Notes under the pieces: model-generated | What the model saw: the letters and a program-made list of their open reading frames with translations, nothing else | Told to the model about the DNA's origin: nothing | Databases searched by the model: none | Made by a program: the position numbers and the translations under genes | NCBI GenBank assembly: GCA_041562555.1 | Contig: JBFEXS010000078.1 | Span: forward strand, 1-10,417 | DNA length: 10,417 nt | Direction: 5' to 3' | Origin: Sulfurimonadaceae bacterium | GTDB taxonomy: Bacteria; Campylobacterota; Campylobacteria; Campylobacterales; Sulfurimonadaceae | Shown here: positions 1 to 10,417 of the stretch, piece by piece | How the letters are laid out: the number at the start of each line of letters is the position of its first letter | Numbering within the stretch: the stretch's first letter is position 1

Positions 1-511
1 AACCGATATAGTGTGCACGCTGTTCAGATACGTTCTCATAACGAGGACCGTGTACGATCGCAAGTTCCGGACAAACCTCTGCACAGTATCCACAGAAGAT
101 ACAACGACCCAGGTTGATCGTATACTCAGAGACCTCTTTACGGGAGTTCTCATCAATACGCGTGTCCATACGGATACAGTCAGAGATACAGATCTTTTCA
201 CAAAGACCACAACCGATACAACGCTCTGTACCAGATTCCCAAAGACGCTGCATCTCATGTACTGCACGGTAACGTGGACCGATAGGCAGTTTTTCCGCCG
301 GGTATTGAACAGTGTGGATGTCAAACTTGAACATCTCGCGCAGTACAACCCATAGCCCTACGAAAAGCTCCAGTTTGAACGTACGATCTACAACACGTTT
401 GAATTTACCCCATCCTGTGGTCGGGTAATCTTCAATATCCACCAAATAGTATGATGAACCTTCCGTCACATTTCTATCTTTAAAATTCTCTAAACTTGGT
501 AATTTTCCCAT
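1..511 (-). CDS. nuoI: NADH-quinone oxidoreductase subunit I (3' end beyond window)
   Basis: Not in the ORF track; translated by hand as (M)[15 protein letters not shown]...[17 protein letters not shown]...[18 protein letters not shown]...[24 protein letters not shown]..., open to the edge. Two CxxCxxCxxxC [4Fe-4S] motifs (N6a/N6b) and follows nuoH. Tandem ATGs at 514 and 511; AAGG spacing favours 511. Confidence 0.96.
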
Positions 512-520
512 CATAAACCC

Positions 521-1504
521 TTAAAACATCATCACAAAGCCAGTGATAACAACGTTAATCACTGCCAGTGGCATTAGAATCTTCCAACATAAAGCCATCA
601 ATTGATCCGGTCTTACATCCGGCCACGCAGCACGTGTCCACAGGAAGAAGAAGAAAAAGAAAGATACTTTTCCTAAAAGTGCAAGTGCCCCGCCAATTGA
701 ACCGTCACCGAAACCACCAAAGAAGATGATCGAGATCAAGAACGCATAGAAGAACATATTCGCATACTCACCGATAAAGAATAGACCCCAACGCATACCT
801 GAGTATTCCGTACCGAAACCGTCAATGATCTCGTGATCGTTCGCTACCAGGTGAAATGGTGTACGACCTGTCTCAGCAAAACCTGCGATCAGGAAAAGTA
901 CCATTGCGACCGGTTGATATACTACCATCCAGTAACCATCTGTCTGGAAGTTGTTCAGATCGATCAGTGAGAAAGAACCAACCATCATCAGTGGAGCAAG
1001 CAGTGACAGACCAGTGATCACCTCGTATGAGATAAATACTGCCGCACCACGCGCCGCTGATAGAAGTGAGTATTTATTTGCAGAAGCCATACCACCAAGA
1101 AGTGGACCATACAGACCGACTGCCATTACCGCCAGTACATAAAGAACACCAACATTGATATCTGCGACGATAGGATTGACCGTATAACCACCAATCGTGA
1201 AAGAAGGCATAAATGGGATCGCTGCTGCCGCCATGAACGCAGTCGCTGCCGTGATAACCGGAGCAACTTTGAAGATGCGTGCCACAACATTTGTCGGGAT
1301 GATATCCTCTTTTGTAAACAGTTTGATACCGTCCGCAGCTACTTGCGCAAGACCGTAAGGTCCAACGACCATTGGCCCAAGACGTCTTTGCATAAACGCA
1401 AGTACCTTACGCTCAAAATAGGTCCCCAGACCTGCAAGCGCAGAAAACACAGTTAAAATGACAACGATCTTGATGATCGTCTCAATTATATATGCTGTAT
1501 CCAT
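521..1504 (-). CDS. nuoH: NADH-quinone oxidoreductase subunit H
   Basis: 327-aa polytopic membrane protein with ERKVLAFMQRRLGP, ADGIKLFTKED, ISYE, TEYSG and RPDQLM motifs; lies between nuoG and nuoI. Confidence 0.97.
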   Translation of the reverse strand: MDTAYIIETIIKIVVILTVFSALAGLGTYFERKVLAFMQRRLGPMVVGPYGLAQVAADGIKLFTKEDIIPTNVVARIFKVAPVITAATAFMAAAAIPFMPSFTIGGYTVNPIVADINVGVLYVLAVMAVGLYGPLLGGMASANKYSLLSAARGAAVFISYEVITGLSLLAPLMMVGSFSLIDLNNFQTDGYWMVVYQPVAMVLFLIAGFAETGRTPFHLVANDHEIIDGFGTEYSGMRWGLFFIGEYANMFFYAFLISIIFFGGFGDGSIGGALALLGKVSFFFFFFLWTRAAWPDVRPDQLMALCWKILMPLAVINVVITGFVMMF

Positions 1505-1506
1505 AT

Positions 1507-3993
1507 TTATACCCTTTCAATTGAAGCTGTTGTAAAACGGTAACCGTCAAACAGAGCCTCTGATTTTAGTTTAGAATCAAATGTAGTCAGATATGCGATC
1601 TCACCATCGATAAAGTGGTCATGTGACACTTCGACTTCAAGTTCACCCTTCGCTGTACTGACTTTGACCTTATCCCCTTCAGAGATGCCGTTTGCTTCCA
1701 TATACGCTTTTGACGCATGTAGACCCGGTTTCTCTTTAGACTGGTGTGCTTTAGCAGTAAAGTCTGAGAACTGGCGAACCGGATTCGCAAGATACAGTGC
1801 TTTTTCAATGCTTGCATCGATCATCGGCTCTACGTTCTCATCTGCACCCGTAGCAACCGTGACCTTGTCAAGTACATAACCACGTACTTCCGTACCATCA
1901 TTCTCATAATGGTTTGGAAGGTTATCAAACTTCTCAGCTTTGAAACCTTTCGCTGTTGGAAGTGCTTCAGTATAATCGATTGTCAACTCTGCTTCCATAC
2001 CCAGTGCATTCGCGATATCGTTAAGTACGTATCCGCCATACCCCAGAGCAGCATTTGTCGGGTTGACACGCTTGTTGATCGATGTCAATGTACCCTCTTG
2101 CTGATTCATTGCCGGCATATCTAGGTCACCTTCGCCAAGTGCAGAAAGAACGAAATCTGCCTCTGTGTTGTAACCGATAGCATATGAACCTGCTGCATCA
2201 TCAAGATCACAGATCTGAGAAACACCAAGTGTATTTGCCAAGGCAGGGATCATTACCAATTCGAAATCTGTATACTTCTCGATCAATGCACACAGACGTG
2301 CAAGGTTTTTAGATGCCGGATGCGTATATAGGTCTGGTCCGACCATTAATACGAATGCATCCTTTTTCTTCAGGAATTTGTCCATGTTCTCTTCGAAGTT
2401 TTTCGGTGCGTTCAGGATCTCTAGCAGACGGTTCTCATCAACTTCGACCTCTTTAGAAACAGTCTTAGAAACCATAGTCGACTTTTCGACTTCAACTTCT
2501 TCCTCTTCTCCTGTCTCTTCGTTGACTTTCATCTCTTTGACCATCTCAACGACTTTCTCTTTCACTGTCTCTTCAACAGTGATCGTCTTGATCGTGTGGA
2601 AGCTCGCGATGTACTCTGTGACAGATGCAGGCAGTTTCTCTTTGTCTGCAAACAGGTCAAGCATAAGGTAAAGAGCCGCTTCTTCTTGAAGTGGTGCATG
2701 GTTGATGGACATAACCGATTTACCCATCTGATCGATCACCGGGTCAACTACAGGATGGAAATAAAGACCTGCACCCTTGTTCATCGTCATTGAGTTGTTG
2801 AAGGCATAACGTGCATTCGGGTTATCCGTTTTTAGTGCCGTACCTACCGAAACAATAAAGTTTGCATCATGTGCCACTTTAAGATCTGCTCCATACAGGG
2901 CAGTTCCTGAGATCTCTGAGTAATTTTCCAGGAAGTCTTGGAACGCTTTTGCTTCAGGGTTTACAAGCTTGTATCCTCTCTGCTCTTTAAGACGTTGAAG
3001 GATATATGCCTCTTCATTCGTGATCGTAGAAGTAAACTTGATCGTATCTGCTTTGCTAAAGGCTTGTACAGTTTTCATGAATGCAGCTTCGTCTTTTTCT
3101 ACGCCTCTGTTTTCATAATCATACCCGTAACGTCCCGCACCACACAGTGATACATAGTTCCACTCATTGATAACGCGGTAGATCTTGTCTTCCGGGTTAT
3201 CGATTGATTCATGCTTCACATCATAATTGATCTGACAACCTGCAGAACAGTGTCCACATGTTGCTGGAACCTGTGTCTGCTCCCATGCATTTGATGTGTA
3301 CATGAAGTCAGTGCTGACAAGTGCACCGACCGGACAAACTGCAGCACACTCACCACATGATGTACAGTCTAGCATATCACCGCCTGCAGTCAGACCGATG
3401 ATAGACTTGTTCAGTTTGTTCCACATCGCATACGCATCTTTAGGCATAGACTCTTTTTGATCTTCTGAGATACCTTCAGCACCACGAGGAACCGTTTTAA
3501 GCGAGTTGTCACCGATCATATCTTTACATACCGTCACACAACGCTCACATACGATACACAGACCTGCGTCATAATGGATGTGACCCCAGTCAAGTACTGG
3601 ACGTGCAACATCAGGTACTGTATATGACTGAGAATCGACACCGATCTCTAAAGTATAGTTCTGAAGCTCACACTCCCCTGACTGATCACATACACCACAC
3701 TGAAGCGGGTGGTTTACATCATATACTTCCATGATCGCACGACGTTCTAACTCGATGTTCTCCGTTGATGTCGTGATCTGCATGCCATCTTTTGCTTTTG
3801 CATTACAAGCATATACTTGTTTACCGTCAGCTTCTACAAGACATATACGACATGCCAATGTAGGGCTACAACGTGTTAAATAACAAATAGCTGGAATAAA
3901 AATATCATTGGCACGAGCGGCGTTGAGTACGAACTCACCCTCTTGTGTCTGAATCTCTTTTCCATCAATATTAATCGTAACTAGTTTACTCAT
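1507..3993 (-). CDS. nuoG: NADH-quinone oxidoreductase subunit G (Campylobacterota type)
   Basis: Motifs in order: [2Fe-2S] (IPAIC...ACRIC...YAC), HPLQCGVCDQSGEC, CIVCERCVTVC, CTSCGECAAVCP, CGHCSAGC-x30-C, then a molybdopterin-oxidoreductase-like C-terminal region. The start is ATG 3993 (GGAGG 6 nt upstream) rather than the TTG at 3996 given in the track. Confidence 0.96.
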   Translation of the reverse strand: MSKLVTINIDGKEIQTQEGEFVLNAARANDIFIPAICYLTRCSPTLACRICLVEADGKQVYACNAKAKDGMQITTSTENIELERRAIMEVYDVNHPLQCGVCDQSGECELQNYTLEIGVDSQSYTVPDVARPVLDWGHIHYDAGLCIVCERCVTVCKDMIGDNSLKTVPRGAEGISEDQKESMPKDAYAMWNKLNKSIIGLTAGGDMLDCTSCGECAAVCPVGALVSTDFMYTSNAWEQTQVPATCGHCSAGCQINYDVKHESIDNPEDKIYRVINEWNYVSLCGAGRYGYDYENRGVEKDEAAFMKTVQAFSKADTIKFTSTITNEEAYILQRLKEQRGYKLVNPEAKAFQDFLENYSEISGTALYGADLKVAHDANFIVSVGTALKTDNPNARYAFNNSMTMNKGAGLYFHPVVDPVIDQMGKSVMSINHAPLQEEAALYLMLDLFADKEKLPASVTEYIASFHTIKTITVEETVKEKVVEMVKEMKVNEETGEEEEVEVEKSTMVSKTVSKEVEVDENRLLEILNAPKNFEENMDKFLKKKDAFVLMVGPDLYTHPASKNLARLCALIEKYTDFELVMIPALANTLGVSQICDLDDAAGSYAIGYNTEADFVLSALGEGDLDMPAMNQQEGTLTSINKRVNPTNAALGYGGYVLNDIANALGMEAELTIDYTEALPTAKGFKAEKFDNLPNHYENDGTEVRGYVLDKVTVATGADENVEPMIDASIEKALYLANPVRQFSDFTAKAHQSKEKPGLHASKAYMEANGISEGDKVKVSTAKGELEVEVSHDHFIDGEIAYLTTFDSKLKSEALFDGYRFTTASIERV

Positions 3994-5458
3994 CAACTTC
4001 CTCCAATTTTACTCGTTTATAACGGTATTCATCATAATTATCTGTACTGTCAAAGACAGGGTTGTAAGCTATCGTTCCTTTAAGGTCTTCAGATACCTTA
4101 AATTTACGTTGATAGGTTTTACCGTCCATTTCAAAACGTACCATAGCTCCAGTTTCGATCTTAGCTGCCATCGCAAACTGCTTTGATCCCAATAGCATCA
4201 GCTCATCTTCTTCATGACCTGCCTGGGATAAAGGATGGTTGCATCGGTAAACGACTGTTCCGTTAAACTCGGAAATGTCATCTACCTCTTCAACACGTTC
4301 ATCCTCGCTCATGACATCCAAATTCGCCAGTTCATATCCTCGCATCGCCTCGGATACTGTACTGTCCATTTCAAGATCATCAAACGCAACAGCTTTGTAC
4401 CCTGACGTAGCAGGAAGCTTAGCCGTATAATCTGTTGTTCTTGTTGCGTGAATGTCCAATGCATTCGCAATGTCGTTTAAGTTATATCCATCAAAAGGAT
4501 TCTCCAGATCAAGTGCGAAAACGCTCTTGTTCAACGAGGTAAAGGTCCCCTTTTGCTGATTCAGTCCCGGCATGTCCAGATCACCGTCTCCCAAAAAGGA
4601 GAGCGTGTAATCCGCTTTGACGTTATAGCCGATCGTCTTGCCTTCTATCGCCTCATCCAGATCACATATGAGCGCAACACCCAAAGTGTTAGCCTCAGAT
4701 GGGATCATGACAAGTTCGACATCACTGTATTTAGAGATCATGCCAAGTATCTTGGCAATGTTTTGCGATCGCGGATGATTGAACAGATCCGATCCGACTA
4801 CCAAAACACTTGTCTCAAGTTCAGCAAGCTTTTGAGCCATATCCTCAAACTCTTCCTCACCGACACTGCTCTCACCACAGATATAACCGACATCCAAATC
4901 ATCAAAGAAAGATTGGTTTCTAGCCTTTCCTTCTTCATTGACAAACAGGTCAGCCAACATAGCGACCAGACCCTCTTCACTTCCTACTTCATATTTGATA
5001 TGCTCTGTCACAATATCATGAAGTGATTCGTCCTCAAGGGGATGCATATAGGCAATATATGCCTCTTTCTCACTGCTCGCAATCTCAAGTGCCTTTGCAA
5101 GCCTCGGATTATCGGCCTTGACCGATGAACCAAGAACAATGACACCATCACATGTCTCAACCTTGTTCAGGTTACCACCATAAAGGTGTTTCCCGCCGAC
5201 ACTTCCAAAGGCCTTTAAAAAGTCCTGGAACCTTTTGGCTTCTTTGTTTATCAGCTTATACCCGTACTTTTCTTTCAAGGTCTGAAGAATCATTGCTTCT
5301 TCATTCGTTATCACCGAATTAAAGATGATACTTTTTGCCTCTTTAAAGACGTCTAGTGTCTTTGCAAAGGCAGCTTCATCTTTTTTCGCACGGTTTTCAT
5401 AATCATAAATAACCTGTCCTGCTTCACATAACGATTCTAAGGCATGGACATTATTCAT
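3986..5458 (-). CDS. Fe-S-less paralog of the NuoG C-terminal region in the nuoF position (probable long NuoY/Cj1574c/HP1265-type accessory subunit)
   Basis: Intact 490-aa ORF, colinear with the adjacent NuoG from SLCxAG onward (YDYENR, KDEAAF, ITNEEA, FQDFL, ELVMIP, ANTLGV, GDLDMP, LNDIANAL). No CxxC cluster motifs and no NuoF FMN/NADH motifs. Its stop overlaps the nuoG start (ATGAGTAA). Confidence 0.85.
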   Translation of the reverse strand: MNNVHALESLCEAGQVIYDYENRAKKDEAAFAKTLDVFKEAKSIIFNSVITNEEAMILQTLKEKYGYKLINKEAKRFQDFLKAFGSVGGKHLYGGNLNKVETCDGVIVLGSSVKADNPRLAKALEIASSEKEAYIAYMHPLEDESLHDIVTEHIKYEVGSEEGLVAMLADLFVNEEGKARNQSFFDDLDVGYICGESSVGEEEFEDMAQKLAELETSVLVVGSDLFNHPRSQNIAKILGMISKYSDVELVMIPSEANTLGVALICDLDEAIEGKTIGYNVKADYTLSFLGDGDLDMPGLNQQKGTFTSLNKSVFALDLENPFDGYNLNDIANALDIHATRTTDYTAKLPATSGYKAVAFDDLEMDSTVSEAMRGYELANLDVMSEDERVEEVDDISEFNGTVVYRCNHPLSQAGHEEDELMLLGSKQFAMAAKIETGAMVRFEMDGKTYQRKFKVSEDLKGTIAYNPVFDSTDNYDEYRYKRVKLEEVDE

Positions 5459-5469
5459 AATTTTCTCGC

Positions 5470-5694
5470 CTATTTCTTAACTACTATTGTCCAGTCGACT
5501 TCGTTAAACTTCAATGAGTTTAAAAGCTCACAACCACACTCTTTCATCATGTCAGCAGAACGTTGTACACCAGAGAAGTCACCGATCTCGAACAAGAAGA
5601 TGATAACCTCACCTGCAGTGATCTCGTTTGTGACGATCTCTCTCATACGTCCGTCAAAGTCTGCTTTCAGATGTCTTAAATCATAACGTTTCAT
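5470..5694 (-). CDS. nuoX: Small Campylobacterota complex I subunit in the nuoE position (NuoX / Cj1575c / HP1264 'chain E' family)
   Basis: 74 aa, MKRYDLRH...GEVIIFLFEIGDFS...ELLNSLKFNEVDWTIVVKK, matching the family as I recall it. TAATG overlap with the nuoD stop. No NuoE [2Fe-2S] motif. Confidence 0.88.
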   Translation of the reverse strand: MKRYDLRHLKADFDGRMREIVTNEITAGEVIIFLFEIGDFSGVQRSADMMKECGCELLNSLKFNEVDWTIVVKK

Positions 5695-6932
5695 TATCTA
5701 TCCACCTCACCAAATACGATATTTGTAGTACCAATGATAGATACAACATCCGGGATCATTGAACCTGGAAGTAGATCCGTTAAAATACCCGTATGCCAGA
5801 AAGACGGTGCACGCATTTTTAAACGGTACGGATATGGACCACCTTGAGAGTTGATGTAGAAACCAAGCTCCCCTTTTGGTGATTCAGTTGGAACATATAC
5901 CTCACCAACCGGAGGGCGCATACCCTGCGTAACAAGTACAAAGTGCTGCATCAACGAGTAGTTCTGCGTCATGATATCCAGCTTAGGTGCTGAGATATAC
6001 TGCGGTGCATGTGCCATCAACTCAGTCTGATTATTCTCTTGTGTCTCTTTATACATGTTGATCGTTTGATAAAGGATCTTTGCAGACTCACGCATCTCAG
6101 CCATATACAGCTTATAACGCGCGTAGTTGTCACCTTTGTCAGAAACCGGGACATCAAAATCCACTTCGTCGTATAGCTCATACGGCTCTTCTTTACGAAT
6201 ATCCCACTCAACGCCGGAAGCACGTAGCATAACGCCTGAACAACCCCATGAATGTGCCATCTCTGTTGAGATAACCCCTACGTTTTCCATACGCATCTTC
6301 CAGATACGGTTGCTATCAAGTAGATCTTCATAATCTTTAAGATCTTGTGGGAACTTATCCAAGAACGCTTTCAAGTCATGGATAAAGTTATCCGGGATAT
6401 CCAATGGAACACCACCGATACGTACAGCTGAGTGTGTTAAACGTGCCCCACAGTAATCTTCGATAATATCCATAAGGTATTCACGCTCACGGAAAGCATA
6501 CAGGAACACTGTCATAGCACCGATATCAAGCGCTGTTGTCGCCAACCAGAAAAGGTGAGACATCAAACGGTTGATCTCAAGAAGCATCATACGGATAACT
6601 TTTGCACGACGTGGCACTTCAAGTCCGATAAGCTTTTCAACTGCAAGTGCGAACCCGTAGTTGTTTGAGCTTGATGCGATATAGTCCATACGGTCCGTAG
6701 TCGGTAGGAACTCGTTGTAGATCATGTTCTCTGCCATCTTCTCCATACCACGGTGAAGATAACCGACATCCGGATGTGCTTTAACGATTTGCTCTTGTTG
6801 CAGGTGCAGTATCAGACGTAACTGACCGTGAGCAGACGGGTGCTGAGGACCGAAGTTGACAACCATCTCGTTGTCTTTGCGGTCAAAGCTGATATTTTCA
6901 AAAAATGGTCTTAATCTATTTGGCTGTTGCAT
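5694..6932 (-). CDS. nuoD: NADH-quinone oxidoreductase subunit D
   Basis: 412 aa with [48 protein letters not shown] and terminal GEVDR. Confidence 0.98.
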
Positions 6933-6939
6933 ATCAATC

Positions 6940-7746
6940 CTAACGCTTACGATCTGTAATAGTTACAGCTTCGTCTTCAATGAATTTAGAAAGGGCAAAT
7001 ACACCACCCTCTTCTTGATACCCCAGTGGAGTCTCTGGTTGATCTTCTTTAAACTCAGCACCGCGAGGAACTTCATGACCAAGACGTCCGAAACGCTCTG
7101 TATCATAACGATCAACAACTGCTGGATCACGGTTTTCAGGCCCGATGATATCGCGCGCTTCTTTCCCATAGATCTTGTCAACTTCATACCATGAAGCTGC
7201 TTCATCACCCTGTAAAGGATAGGTCTTAAGAAGTGGATGTCCAACCCAGTCATCCGGCATTAGGATACGTTTCATATATGGGTGATTATTCACCTTCACA
7301 CCGAACATATCATACATCTCACGCTCTGCCCAGTCAGCTGAACGATAGAGTGGGTTAAGAGATTCGACTGCTTGCTCTTTATCAATGAAACATTTCACAC
7401 GAACACGTTTACGTTTGCTCATTGAAAGGAATTGGTAGAAGACTTCGAATTGACCTTGTTTAGCCAACCAGTCGATTGCCGAACACTCTGAAAGCTGGTT
7501 ATAGTCACAATTTTCTTTAAGCGCTTTAGCAACTGTAAAGTTGTCTTCAGGGTTGATGATAACGACAAGCTGACCCACTTGGATATACGCTTCTTTAACC
7601 TCTGCAACTGCTTTGATCGCCTCAAGGTCAGCTGCAAAAACGTCATCTGTTTCTACCTCGAATTTCGCGACTTGAGGTGCAACCCAATAACGGTCTGTAT
7701 AGTACGGTTTTTTCTGTACATTATCTTTTGGTACATATCTTCTCAT
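6940..7746 (-). CDS. nuoC: NADH-quinone oxidoreductase subunit C
   Basis: 268 aa with [13 protein letters not shown] and [24 protein letters not shown] overlap with the nuoB stop. Confidence 0.96.
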
Positions 7747-8255
7747 TACACCAACCTCTTTTGACGTTGTGACTTACCTGCTTTTTCCGAACGGATCTTC
7801 TTTTGAAGCATCATAACGGCATATTGAAGTGTCTCAGGACGAGGTGCACACCCCGGAAGATAAAGATCGACAGGAATAATACGGTCAACCCCCTGAACTG
7901 TTGCATAGGTATTGAACATACCACCAGTGTTTGCACATGAACCCATTGAGATAACCCAACGAGGCTCCGGCATCTGATCATAAAGACGCTTGATGAACTC
8001 AGCGTGCTTCTTTGTCAATGTCCCTGCAACGATCATAAGGTCAGACTGACGAGGAGATGCACGGAAGATTGTACCAAAACGGTCAAAGTCATAACGTGAT
8101 GCACCGGAAGCCATCATCTCAATACCACAACAAGCAAGACCATAAGTCATCGCCCATAGTGAGTTTGAATGCCCCCAGTTGATAATTTTATCTACAGAGG
8201 TCAATGCTACCGGCAAACCTCCGTCTTGTGTATAATTTACTTGATGCTGTGCCAT
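7746..8255 (-). CDS. nuoB: NADH-quinone oxidoreductase subunit B
   Basis: 169 aa with N2 ligands in [19 protein letters not shown] and PGCAPRPE, plus [17 protein letters not shown]. Confidence 0.98.
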
Positions 8256-8626
8256 TCAAGCGCTCCTTTTTTCCATGCATATATAAAACCAATTGCAAGT
8301 AATAAGATAAATAACATCATCTCTACAAATCCAAACCAACCAAGCAGTGTAAAATCAATTGCCCATGGAAACATGAAAACAACCTCTACATCAAATAGAA
8401 GGAATAGCAAGGCGAAAAGATAAAACTGTGTTGAGATACGGTTAGGCTGCTTAGTTACCTCAGGACCACACTCATAGATAGAAAGTTTGATCTTCTCAGA
8501 TGTCTTTGCTGCAAGCTTGTGACTTACCCAACGTGCAGCAATTGTTGTTGCATAAAATGCCCCAAACGTCAGCACAAATAGTAAAAATACCCCAAAGTAT
8601 GGGTGATCTACAGGAATATGTTCCAT
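8237..8626 (-). CDS. nuoA: NADH-quinone oxidoreductase subunit A
   Basis: 129 aa, three hydrophobic segments, [16 protein letters not shown] and [18 protein letters not shown]; overlaps nuoB by 19 nt. Confidence 0.97.
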
Positions 8627-8663
8627 AAATACCTTTCTTAATCTATACAGTTAACTCCCTAAA

Positions 8664-8687
8664 GAAAGCCCTTATTAAGGGTATTTC
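8664..8687 (-). promoter_or_regulatory. Inverted repeat/hairpin in the putative nuoA leader
   Basis: The minus strand reads GAAATACCCTTAATAAGGGCTTTC, with core CCCTTA-N-TAAGGG at 8669-8681. Confidence 0.35.
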
Positions 8688-8720
8688 CCGTTTTTCTGCA
8701 TAAATAGACATAATGGCGAC

Positions 8721-8743
8721 ATACTATCGTAATAAGGATTAAA
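8721..8743 (-). promoter_or_regulatory. Putative sigma70 promoter of the nuo operon
   Basis: The minus strand reads TTTAATCCTTATTACGATAGTAT: a GnTAnnnT-type -10 box (TAGTAT, 8721-8726) with upstream TTTAA and T-tracts, as in Campylobacterota RpoD promoters. It lies just downstream of the terminator-like hairpin. Confidence 0.4.
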
Positions 8744-8757
8744 GAGAATTGATATTG

Positions 8758-8801
8758 AAAAGGGAAAAAGCCCCCTGTAACCTATGGAAACACGAGGCTT
8801 T
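8758..8801 (-). terminator. Putative intrinsic terminator of the AAA ATPase gene
   Basis: The minus strand reads AAAGCCTCGTGT-TTCCATAGGTT-ACAGGGGGCTTT, an imperfect stem-loop running into TTCCCTTTT, about 35 nt after the stop. Confidence 0.55.
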
Positions 8802-8820
8802 CAGAGCATTATTTGACTTA

Positions 8821-8838
8821 TAAGAATTATAATTCTTA
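8821..8838. repeat. Perfect 18-bp palindrome TAAGAATTATAATTCTTA
   Basis: Equals its own reverse complement, overlaps the ATPase stop codon, and has TATAAT on both strands. Confidence 0.8.
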
Positions 8839-10417
8839 ATTATTTATGAACCCGACTGACTTTTCTGAATCAAATGTCCCGGATTTTTCTTTTTCGATCT
8901 CTTTGATAAAGTCGTTTAATCCAAAAACAGGTTCTTCTCTTGTAGCAACTTGATATGCAGTGTTCTTAACAATAAGATTTATCTGTCCGCCCGTCAAAGC
9001 ATAATCCGCCAACACATTACTGTCAAAGCCCTCTTCATAAGGTGCGTTCTGTGGCAACATCTTTTCCCAAAGCAATCTTCGCTGTTCTACATTAGGTTTT
9101 TTGAACTCTATCTTATAGTTAAACCTTCTGGAAAAGGCCGGATCGATATTTTCCAATAGGTTTGTCGTTGCGACTAAAAGCCCCTGGAAGTTCTCAATCT
9201 GTTCTAAAAAGATATTCTGCATCTGATTATGCATCTGATCTGTTGATGAACCAACCCCCTGTGAACGTGCTCCAAGAAATTGATCCGCCTCGTTAAGCAA
9301 GAGGATAGGCTCCGTTTTTGTCTTTTGCGTGAGCTCATAATAGGTATCAAAAATCTTACGAACATTCTTTTCACTCTCACCTACATACATGGAGAGTATC
9401 TTTGAACAGTCAAATGCCAGCACCTGGCGCTTCAAAGATTTCGCTAGAGAATACGCTGTCATGGTCTTACCTGTACCGGGATGGCCATAAAACATGACCC
9501 GTGCATCTATCCCTCTGCGCTTGTCACGTAACCCCCACTCTTGCAAGCGCGCTACGACCTCTTTGTCCACTTGACGCATCAATGCATTAAGCGTTTCGGA
9601 TGTTTTTGGATTTAGTACGACGTCATCCAGTGATGTGTCCGGTTCGATCAGCTCAAAGATGTCCTGCTCTTTGATTAACATATCTAATTTTAGTTTGCGT
9701 ACTTTCTTTTTCTTTTGCGGATGAATGATCTCCTGTAGAACTTCATCCACAATATAAAAAGCCCGACTGATCCCCCCAAAAGGATTCAGCATCTCCTCAT
9801 AATCGATAAACTCTTCTTCGATAAGCTTTGATCCATCCTCAAGCAAGGATCTATTCTTGATACGTTCATATTCATCTAATGAGATGAGATCAATCAGATT
9901 GTTCATCTCACGTAAATTATTGTCCCCTGCTGAATACTCCTCTTTTAATAAGGCTAAAAATATGATCTGTTCCTTATCGTCAAGTTTCTTTTGTTTAAAG
10001 AACCTCTCCAATGATACTTCTTGCTTCGTAACAGCCAACCTGTCTTCAATACGCTTCTCAAGCAGCTCGAGTTTGTTTTTAACACGACTGATACCTAAGG
10101 CATTCTCATTTACATTGTGACGGATCGAACTCATTTTCTGATAAGACTCGATACGGAAGAACTGATCCTGTAGATATTCCAAATGATCTTCATAGGGCTT
10201 GATTTCCGGAAGATCTAGTTCGGCATTCCCTTCTTCAAGAAGTTTCAGGAATGAGGGTGTTAATGAGACTGCTGAATTCAATAACTCAAGATGTGACATA
10301 TCAGAAATCTTTAATGGCTGGAAAGATTGTTGTACCAACCATCCGGATTCTAAAGCAGACTTGACCGTTGGTAGATAATCAAGATAAATATAGTTCTTAT
10401 CACCAAAAATTTCTTGT
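8836..10417 (-). CDS. AAA+ family ATPase (classical AAA clade), 5' end beyond window
   Basis: Walker A GHPGTGKT, pore loop SMYVGESEKN, Walker B ILLLNE, SRH TTN...DPAFSRRF. The frame stays open upstream of the track's TTG start at 10338 (QEIFGDKNYIYLDYLPTVKSALESGWLVQQ) to the window edge. Confidence 0.92.
   Translation of the reverse strand, partial: QEIFGDKNYIYLDYLPTVKSALESGWLVQQSFQPLKISDMSHLELLNSAVSLTPSFLKLLEEGNAELDLPEIKPYEDHLEYLQDQFFRIESYQKMSSIRHNVNENALGISRVKNKLELLEKRIEDRLAVTKQEVSLERFFKQKKLDDKEQIIFLALLKEEYSAGDNNLREMNNLIDLISLDEYERIKNRSLLEDGSKLIEEEFIDYEEMLNPFGGISRAFYIVDEVLQEIIHPQKKKKVRKLKLDMLIKEQDIFELIEPDTSLDDVVLNPKTSETLNALMRQVDKEVVARLQEWGLRDKRRGIDARVMFYGHPGTGKTMTAYSLAKSLKRQVLAFDCSKILSMYVGESEKNVRKIFDTYYELTQKTKTEPILLLNEADQFLGARSQGVGSSTDQMHNQMQNIFLEQIENFQGLLVATTNLLENIDPAFSRRFNYKIEFKKPNVEQRRLLWEKMLPQNAPYEEGFDSNVLADYALTGGQINLIVKNTAYQVATREEPVFGLNDFIKEIEKEKSGTFDSEKSVGFINN

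Follow-up and report, generated by a model that had tools for sequence, protein, structure and literature searches.

Complex I operons of Campylobacter and Helicobacter carry two genes in place of nuoE and nuoF, which have so far been regarded as a new kind of electron-input module whose origin was unexplained. A related case is a contig of a Sulfurimonadaceae bacterium [GenBank assembly GCA_041562555.1, contig JBFEXS010000078.1, positions 1 to 10,417; this whole stretch of 10,417 nucleotides is the window], in which a gene for a NuoG-like protein of 490 amino acids (aa) occupies the slot between nuoX and nuoG on the minus strand. What is this gene, how did it arise and what is it kept for? 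We designate its product NuoG1-delta and conclude with high confidence, from sequence comparison, that it represents, in truncated form, an ortholog of the short NuoG, an old second NuoG paralog; its homology to NuoY, the slot protein of the Cj1574c/HP1265 type, appears close to certain. As the best explanation overall we lean towards the view that the truncated short NuoG is a longer version of NuoY and has been retained because it binds, without redox activity, something partly outside complex I. The gene and its parts are as follows:

3986 to 5458, minus strand: NuoG1-delta (truncated short NuoG, 490 aa), assigned from the open reading frame (ORF) call, BLASTP, PRK08493 score, tree and AlphaFold2 model; C-terminal part of a second NuoG paralog with the predicted fold of molybdenum-bis(pyranopterin guanine dinucleotide) (Mo-bisPGD) enzymes, without the Fe-S head; putative long NuoY form
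5459 to 5469, minus strand: 11-nt spacer and start site, apparently from the deleted flavoprotein gene, marking the deletion junction
4685 to 5170, minus strand: NuoY core block 1, residues about 97-258 (NuoY profile, E 4e-46)
4973 to 4993 and 4850 to 4897, minus strand: conserved acidic motifs YEVGSEE and LDxGYxxxESxVGEEE, respectively, in core block 1
4304 to 4684, minus strand: middle segment, residues about 259-385, present in NuoG1-delta and absent from NuoY proteins by occupancy profile
3989 to 4303, minus strand: NuoY core block 2, the C-terminal double-psi beta-barrel domain, residues about 386-490 (NuoY profile, E 6e-24)

Identity and descent of NuoG1-delta

The sequence-only reading of this locus had described the 490-aa protein as an intact, Fe-S-free duplicate of the neighbouring NuoG, aligning with its C-terminal two-thirds. 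Homology to the neighbouring long NuoG was confirmed by global alignment (207/483 positions, 43%; about 41% identity to long NuoG residues 274-829), and the hand counts of that reading were reproduced exactly (69/117 ungapped and 49/74 with one gap), yet the match is discontinuous: BLASTP aligned residues 9-176 with long NuoG 283-453 (42%, E 7e-36) and residues 205-488 with 536-829 (41%, E 1e-55), while residues about 177-204 diverge and contain a motif diagnostic of the short-NuoG lineage.

That lineage is visible in the relatives (41 genomes searched, the loci of 35 relatives mapped and 80 named loci viewed besides). In their common layout nuoX is followed by genes for a flavoprotein of ~670 aa, a short NuoG of ~750 aa with all Fe-S motifs and a long NuoG of ~830 aa, the flavoprotein being the C-terminal (N3) domain of NuoF fused to a GltD/NfnB-like NADPH flavoprotein. 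We show that the full flavoprotein and two-NuoG layout is present in most free-living Campylobacterales. The flavoprotein lies upstream in 71 of the 80 named loci, the ~490-aa form is found in 5, labelled Sulfurimonadaceae or Campylobacterales bacterium, and contig ends cut the view in 4. Among 141 genomes of the family 135 gave a match, with a frame of at least 740 aa in 126, of 487-499 aa in 5 (all of the same genus) and shorter in 4.

In a tree of 59 rows, built by a quick search from the shared C-terminal region, NuoG1-delta and six genus-mates form one clade (Shimodaira-Hasegawa-like approximate likelihood ratio test, SH-aLRT, 100) inside the short-NuoG clade and apart from long NuoG. Its sister is a full-length short NuoG of the same genus, to which NuoG1-delta is 61% identical, against 40% to its own neighbour. 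The profile scores agree (633 bits on short NuoG, 449 bits on long NuoG), and the DxGYxxxES motif, which stands in place of a long-NuoG insert, occurs in 8/8 truncated proteins, 16/21 short NuoG and 0/30 long NuoG. The idea of a duplicate of the neighbouring nuoG does not survive this placement, and a recent tandem duplication is ruled out by the tree; the likeness at the DNA level amounts to two stretches of ~200 bp at 68-70%. As a side observation, the short and long NuoG C-termini cluster together within each of two genomes (G031, locus L042, and G038, locus L037; SH-aLRT 100), a sign of gene conversion between the paralogs.

The Fe-S-free character of the copy was borne out. NuoG1-delta has 5 Cys residues against 22 in long NuoG, and only Cys11 aligns with a ligand, the fourth Cys of N7 (C285 of long NuoG); the [2Fe-2S], N4, N5 and extra-cluster motifs and three of the four N7 ligands fall in the part that NuoG1-delta lacks. 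No Fe-S Pfam family, no Pfam molybdopterin domain (PF00384) and no NuoF family (FMN/NADH domain, N3 motif) matched it, and on PRK08493, the model of the long epsilon-type NuoG, it scored 397 bits, below the cut-off of 591. Having no cluster ligand set, the protein cannot conduct electrons. A sequence search of the Protein Data Bank (PDB) with the 490-aa protein returned no match, and an AlphaFold2 model from an alignment of 25 rows reached a predicted local distance difference test (pLDDT) score of 85.6, residues 1-17 being poorly modelled (pLDDT under 50). Foldseek matched the model to formate dehydrogenases and NuoG/Nqo3 (E 1e-18 to 1e-14), and NuoG1-delta is predicted to have the overall fold of the Mo-bisPGD oxidoreductases. 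The likeness extends to FdhA/FdhF, NapA and the cofactor-less C-terminus of NuoG/Nqo3, with template modelling (TM) scores of 0.56-0.71 to FdhA and NuoG chains; in contrast to the Mo-bisPGD enzymes NuoG1-delta is without the N-terminal Fe-S domains and the Pfam molybdopterin match, and identity to them is 12-14%.

Loss of the NADPH module and selection on the remnant

The ORF contains no stops or frameshifts, starts 11 nt after the nuoX stop and overlaps the nuoG ATG with its last codons (3993-3991), as had been read from the letters alone. The spacer after nuoX reads GGCGAGAAAATT-ATG before NuoG1-delta and AGCGAGTAAATT-ATG before the flavoprotein of full-length relatives, and NuoG1-delta resumes the short NuoG at about codon 250. 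Since the spacer is near-identical to that of the flavoprotein and the short NuoG is resumed at this codon, one deletion of ~2.8 kb accounts for the junction. The deletion was in frame; it is confined to a subclade within a single Sulfurimonadaceae genus, where it took away the flavoprotein together with the short NuoG up to about codon 250. The gain of an electron-input module, as first proposed, is replaced by the loss of an NADPH module.

The full flavoprotein is present in 24 of the 41 genomes and in 0/11 with a reduced slot gene (the eight ~490-aa genomes, G009, G036 and G035), where the search yielded only a GltD match of ~31% or nothing; in the genome of NuoG1-delta (89% complete) only such a 31% GltD match, elsewhere in the genome, was found. 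An assembly artefact or pseudogene is ruled out, as the junction and the open frame recur in the 7 other genomes of the genus that keep the ~490-aa form. A stop in the flavoprotein gene of the sister genome G002 lies near a contig end and is missing from the overlapping contig, and it was not used. In G036, of another family, a 472-aa form has a different start and is placed elsewhere in the tree. A single origin of all ~490-aa forms is borderline and not formally rejected (approximately unbiased test, p-AU, 0.059; log-likelihood lower by 34.6); 10 long-branch rows were left out of the topology tests.

The gene is maintained, as had been supposed. By the Nei-Gojobori method the ratio of nonsynonymous to synonymous substitution rates (dN/dS) was 0.147-0.264 in 21/21 pairs of 7 truncated genes (61-79% identity, 490 codons, no stops). 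For comparison, the long-NuoG C-terminus gave 0.023-0.066 (6 pairs), NuoD 0.016-0.065 (15 pairs) and the full short NuoG of five genus-mates 0.057-0.117 (6/10 pairs unsaturated). NuoG1-delta is under purifying yet relaxed selection.

Several side observations concern the module and its operon. Within the genus, the NuoC+NuoD tree intermingles full-state and truncated genomes (L031, L033, L034, L053 and L054 versus L025), and five full-state genus genomes bear a short NuoG of another lineage than that of G002; the module has the look of a cassette that can be swapped. Where an operon has one NuoG only, the order is nuoX-flavoprotein-NuoG(747)-nuoH (L137) or nuoX-NuoG(765)-nuoH (L044, G026). In Sulfurovum-like loci (L075, L084, L089, L092, L096, L102, L109, L121, L126, L133 and L134) the NuoX-matching ORFs are called at 212-254 aa, not ~75 aa, which may be a real extension or an artefact of the start call.

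The operon order on the minus strand is nuoA-B-C-D, nuoX, the 490-aa ORF, long nuoG, nuoH and nuoI, and the other features of the window are:

8836 to 10416, minus strand: AAA ATPase, cut by the contig end at its 5' side; usually the neighbour upstream of the nuo operon
8237 to 8626, minus strand: nuoA
7746 to 8255, minus strand: nuoB
6940 to 7746, minus strand: nuoC
5694 to 6932, minus strand: nuoD
5470 to 5694, minus strand: nuoX, 74 aa (PF16514; homolog of HP1264, PDB 2lxr)
1507 to 3993, minus strand: long NuoG, epsilon type (PRK08493, 1141 bits; all Fe-S motifs intact); start at the ATG at 3993, with an in-frame TTG at 3996 (ORF span 1507-3996)
521 to 1504, minus strand: nuoH
2 to 514, minus strand: nuoI, running off the contig

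The AAA ATPase fits no curated family, its CDC48/IteA-like matches all being under the cut-off. In Aliarcobacter-type genomes it directly adjoins an orphan nuoY, and the NuoY barrel resembles the N-domain of CDC48-type ATPases.

In the remainder of the genome no ATP-citrate lyase, SoxB or NiFe hydrogenase was found, nor the usual four-subunit epsilon-type pyruvate and 2-oxoglutarate oxidoreductases (POR and OOR). The genome encodes a two-subunit 2-oxoacid:ferredoxin oxidoreductase of the KorAB type (contig C4:3889-6757) and two small ferredoxin-like proteins, and these gene contents fit a heterotroph with a ferredoxin donor. ATP-citrate lyase is missing from 7/8 truncated versus 2/7 full-state genus-mates. 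A second, canonical complex I is encoded on contig C7 (L056:7049-10285), with NuoE, NuoF, a 517-aa NuoG and a fused NuoCD; NuoF occurs in 14/17 genomes of the genus and in 2 of 8 other genera of the family. As a cause of the loss this complex is not discriminating (NuoF in 7/8 truncated and 5/7 full-state genus genomes). A lone [FeFe] hydrogenase with a SnoaL-like tail (contig C26, L057:5991-8093) is group A6-like (657 bits, cut-off 765).

NuoY and the role of the remnant

A profile seeded with NuoG1-delta found a match in 244 of 251 genomes of the order (the best 150 matches being listed), and in the follow-up genomes the slot between nuoX and long nuoG is filled by an ORF of 234-339 aa matching two profile blocks. 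In a comparison set of 21 full-length short NuoG, 8 truncated proteins, 28 NuoY (205-340 aa) and 30 long NuoG, all 28 NuoY scored higher on the short-NuoG profile (57-227 bits) than on the long-NuoG profile (3-90 bits); the NuoY profile matches long NuoG with E 2.5e-7. Residues E157, D189, E196 and F428 are invariant across all short NuoG, truncated and NuoY proteins of this set, and a NuoY model (pLDDT 94) aligns 229/235 residues to Mo-bisPGD enzymes (Z 17.2, root-mean-square deviation 3.0). Slot proteins were traced to Campylobacter insulaenigrae, C. ornithocola/lari, C. sputorum, H. pylori (328 aa) and Sulfurospirillum, where their source names are hypothetical or 'subunit F', and Arcobacter nitrofigilis was identified via its NuoG. 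By these comparisons the NuoY of Campylobacter, Helicobacter, Sulfurospirillum and Arcobacter is the same gene, apparently a smaller remnant of the short NuoG; a single NuoY clade is not rejected (p-AU 0.52). The link of the 490-aa gene with Cj1574c/HP1265 had thus been right in spirit. Two loci among NuoY-bearing kin keep the full flavoprotein and two-NuoG module (L146 of G214, Helicobacter, and L154 of G143, Arcobacteraceae).

The full two-NuoG layout is already known, and the origin of NuoY from the short NuoG is new here. Our search found no paper deriving NuoY from the short NuoG or reporting its lone survival, Weerakoon and Olson 2008 and the preprint supplements lying outside that search; some database names give NuoY as 'chain G-like', so the likeness has not gone wholly unnoticed.

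The in-frame deletion struck an operon of nuoX, NADPH flavoprotein, full short NuoG and long NuoG and left the C-terminal part of the short NuoG on the start site of the flavoprotein, its product having a predicted cofactor-less Mo-bisPGD-like fold. We propose that complex I thereby lost NADP(H) coupling and, like that of Campylobacter, would now pass electrons from ferredoxin to menaquinone, taking them up via NuoX and the long NuoG clusters, and that NADH would be handled by the second, canonical complex I. The NuoX homolog HP1264 of H. pylori is described as FMN-binding (PMC6269979). The remnant would be kept for redox-inert binding by its acidic core (the E157, D189, E196 region), which may hold a basic protein surface or a metal in the manner of an adaptor or scaffold. 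The net charge of NuoG1-delta is -43, which argues against the docking of acidic carriers and for the binding of a basic surface or metal.

The fate of NuoY outside complex I bears on where this binding would take place. A set of 38 genomes with neither long NuoG nor NuoX was picked from the 251-genome profile search as being without a strong NuoG-type match, positive controls of the search for long NuoG being matched in 2/2 cases. One NuoY is retained in 34 of the 38 (14 Nautiliaceae-type, f14; 10 Arcobacteraceae, 5 Campylobacteraceae, 4 Helicobacteraceae and 1 other), related genomes not counting as independent. NuoD-family genes are entirely missing from three of them (G090, G048 and G128), and those of the 7 others checked are fused or of the hydrogenase type. 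Traces of the operon remain around the lone gene: G035 has a 546-aa ABC protein, nuoA..N and a 789-aa protein, and in G184, of the same genus, the orthologs of the two flanking proteins (67% and 71%) enclose nuoY alone. In G120 and G183 the operon is followed within two genes by genes for 287-aa and ~260-aa proteins and topA; G033, G052 and G108 have the AAA ATPase, nuoY and then the same 287-aa/~260-aa/topA genes, both operon flanks having been deleted around nuoY. This survival alone, in places after the loss of both flanks, leads us to think that NuoY and the remnant probably act in part outside complex I, in a redox-inert binding role at least partly independent of it, for which NuoY would outlive the operon in many lineages. 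As a separate observation, the orphan nuoY of the f14 genomes (nine loci viewed: L167-L173, L049 and L156) follows hemA-hemE-hemB-hemC-hemN and usually precedes a DJ-1 family gene; HemN-NuoY fusions (frames of 688-695 aa) are ruled out, the genes being separate ORFs in 3/3 cases. Epsilon-type POR/OOR as a partner of NuoY is unsupported, since these enzymes are present in NuoY-less genomes and were not found in the genome of NuoG1-delta.

In C. jejuni the nuo genes are reportedly deletable and cj1574c is not, according to Weerakoon and Olson. The per-strain transposon-directed insertion-site sequencing (TraDIS) list for C. jejuni 11168 includes Cj1574c, Cj1575c, nuoB and nuoD and no Cj1566-1573 (PMC10077673, file 3), and the 16 'nuo' entries of that file are all nuoB, C or D; such a pattern would be given by polarity on essential cj1575c/cj1574c. 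Whether the C-terminal core of the short NuoG escaped complex I, to become a small protein found nearly throughout the Campylobacterales and doing an essential redox-inert job of its own, with NuoG1-delta an independent, recent and partial replay, we regard as evenly balanced. If it did, this would account for Cj1574c being essential while the downstream nuo genes are not, and the reading of it as a flavodoxin-oxidising replacement of NuoF would be overturned.

A number of observations weigh against these views. Selection on NuoG1-delta is 3-5 times weaker than on the long-NuoG C-terminus or NuoD. In G009, a genus-mate (89% complete), nuoX and long nuoG are intact and the gene is reduced to an in-frame remnant of 88 aa, one NuoG follows nuoX directly in G026, and NuoY is absent from G253, G259, G030 and G032 (96-100% complete); with five genomes lacking a slot gene and the G009 remnant, the protein is not indispensable everywhere. 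The neighbourhoods of orphan nuoY vary by lineage, and no partner was identified. The slot proteins sampled included those of the C. lari group, C. sputorum and H. pylori, and not Cj1574c of C. jejuni itself. The TraDIS pattern could stem from Cj1575c alone, which the main text singles out and finds non-essential in C. lari (PMC10077673). ATP-citrate lyase is kept without the flavoprotein in G011, G009 and G036, so loss of the module tracks loss of autotrophy non-strictly. Two expression runs contained 5% of the sequence words, and only short contigs of diverged relatives mapped.

An alternative, which we consider unlikely, is that NuoG1-delta belongs to complex I as a subunit in its own right, pairing with long NuoG to build a dock for flavodoxin or ferredoxin, as the sequence-only reading had proposed. 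In all 8 genomes with the ~490-aa form, as well as in G036 and the 15 NuoY operons viewed, the gene does lie between nuoX and nuoG, the two NuoG copies of the ancestral operon would probably have touched and passed electrons, and a review has Cj1574c mediating the transfer of electrons to complex I from flavodoxin (PMC4178425). However, like charges would meet in such a dock, the two ferredoxin-like proteins of the genome having net charges of -17 and -23; no flavodoxin was found in this genome (G000), G003 or G036; the 34 genomes described above keep the conserved core although they have neither long NuoG nor NuoX; and operons with nuoX and long nuoG exist without the gene (G009, G026). A band of C. 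jejuni in blue native polyacrylamide gel electrophoresis contained NuoC, D and G only, by a low-coverage method (PMC7717971). A complex prediction for the NuoY of G144 with near-full long NuoG scored 0.00 with the controls unfolded, and was counted neither for nor against binding.

It is improbable, too, that the ORF is a decaying remnant which mainly preserves translational coupling from nuoX to nuoG, residual constraint serving to avoid misfolding. The 88-aa ORF of G009, with the same start and the same nuoG overlap after several internal deletions, would suit such decay, as would the relaxed dN/dS and the poorly modelled N-terminal 17 residues. Set against this are a dN/dS near 0.19 over the 490 stop-free codons of 7 genomes, the invariance in the truncated forms of the acidic residues invariant in NuoY, and the orphan NuoY genes, which have no nuo genes to couple. 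The G009 remnant itself (L050:6440-6706) has several in-frame internal deletions, retains its start and the nuoG overlap, and has no other copy in the genome.

That the core serves Mo-bisPGD enzymes (Nap, Fdh) as a chaperone or cofactor carrier, or assists the folding of NuoG, is very improbable. In its favour, its fold is a clean subset of that of these enzymes, and orphan NuoY adjoins moeA in two genomes (G068 and G121) and in G238 overlaps mobA. Against it, moeA is on the opposite strand in both G068 and G121, other orphans lie at the former operon site or after hemN, and enzymes dependent on the molybdenum cofactor are not known to be essential in C. jejuni.

Comparison with known systems

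The complex I of Campylobacter and Helicobacter has the same order, nuoD-nuoX-[slot gene]-nuoG, with no flavoprotein and a homologous slot gene. In contrast to the NuoY of 205-340 aa, NuoG1-delta with its 490 aa retains residues about 1-96 and 259-385; it probably had an origin of its own, a full-length short NuoG of a single genus being the source, and a search of its genome found no flavodoxin. NuoG1-delta would be the link which shows NuoY to be a cut-down second NuoG, left by the loss of the NADPH module, and the function of the essential Cj1574c/HP1265 becomes testable, with the invariant residues named and natural complex-I-free strains as controls.

Among transhydrogenases of the Bfu family, StnABC and NfnABC, the deleted flavoprotein matches the GltD-like NADPH domain (9bov, 8oh5 and 9n5u; E 1e-80 to 1e-70) and also the NuoF-like subunit. 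That module is what this genome appears to have lost, NuoG1-delta being without a redox centre.

The two NuoG copies of Campylobacterota have already been published (bioRxiv 10.1101/717884). That preprint attributes their spotting to Weerakoon and Olson and gives Suden_1824 (NfnB-like), Suden_1823 (short NuoG) and Suden_1822 (long NuoG) for Sulfurimonas denitrificans. According to its authors all Sulfurimonas and Sulfurovum have the full layout, and electrons are proposed to flow in reverse, to NAD(P)+ and ferredoxin. The truncated genomes would be natural knock-outs of the module proposed to supply NAD(P)H for the reverse tricarboxylic acid cycle in Sulfurimonadaceae. Compared with complex I of S. 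denitrificans, the operon and the two paralogs are the same, NuoG1-delta being the apparent ortholog of its short NuoG and both lacking the long-NuoG insert, but the flavoprotein is absent from the genome and the Fe-S head has been deleted, which makes this Sulfurimonadaceae subclade the exception within its family.

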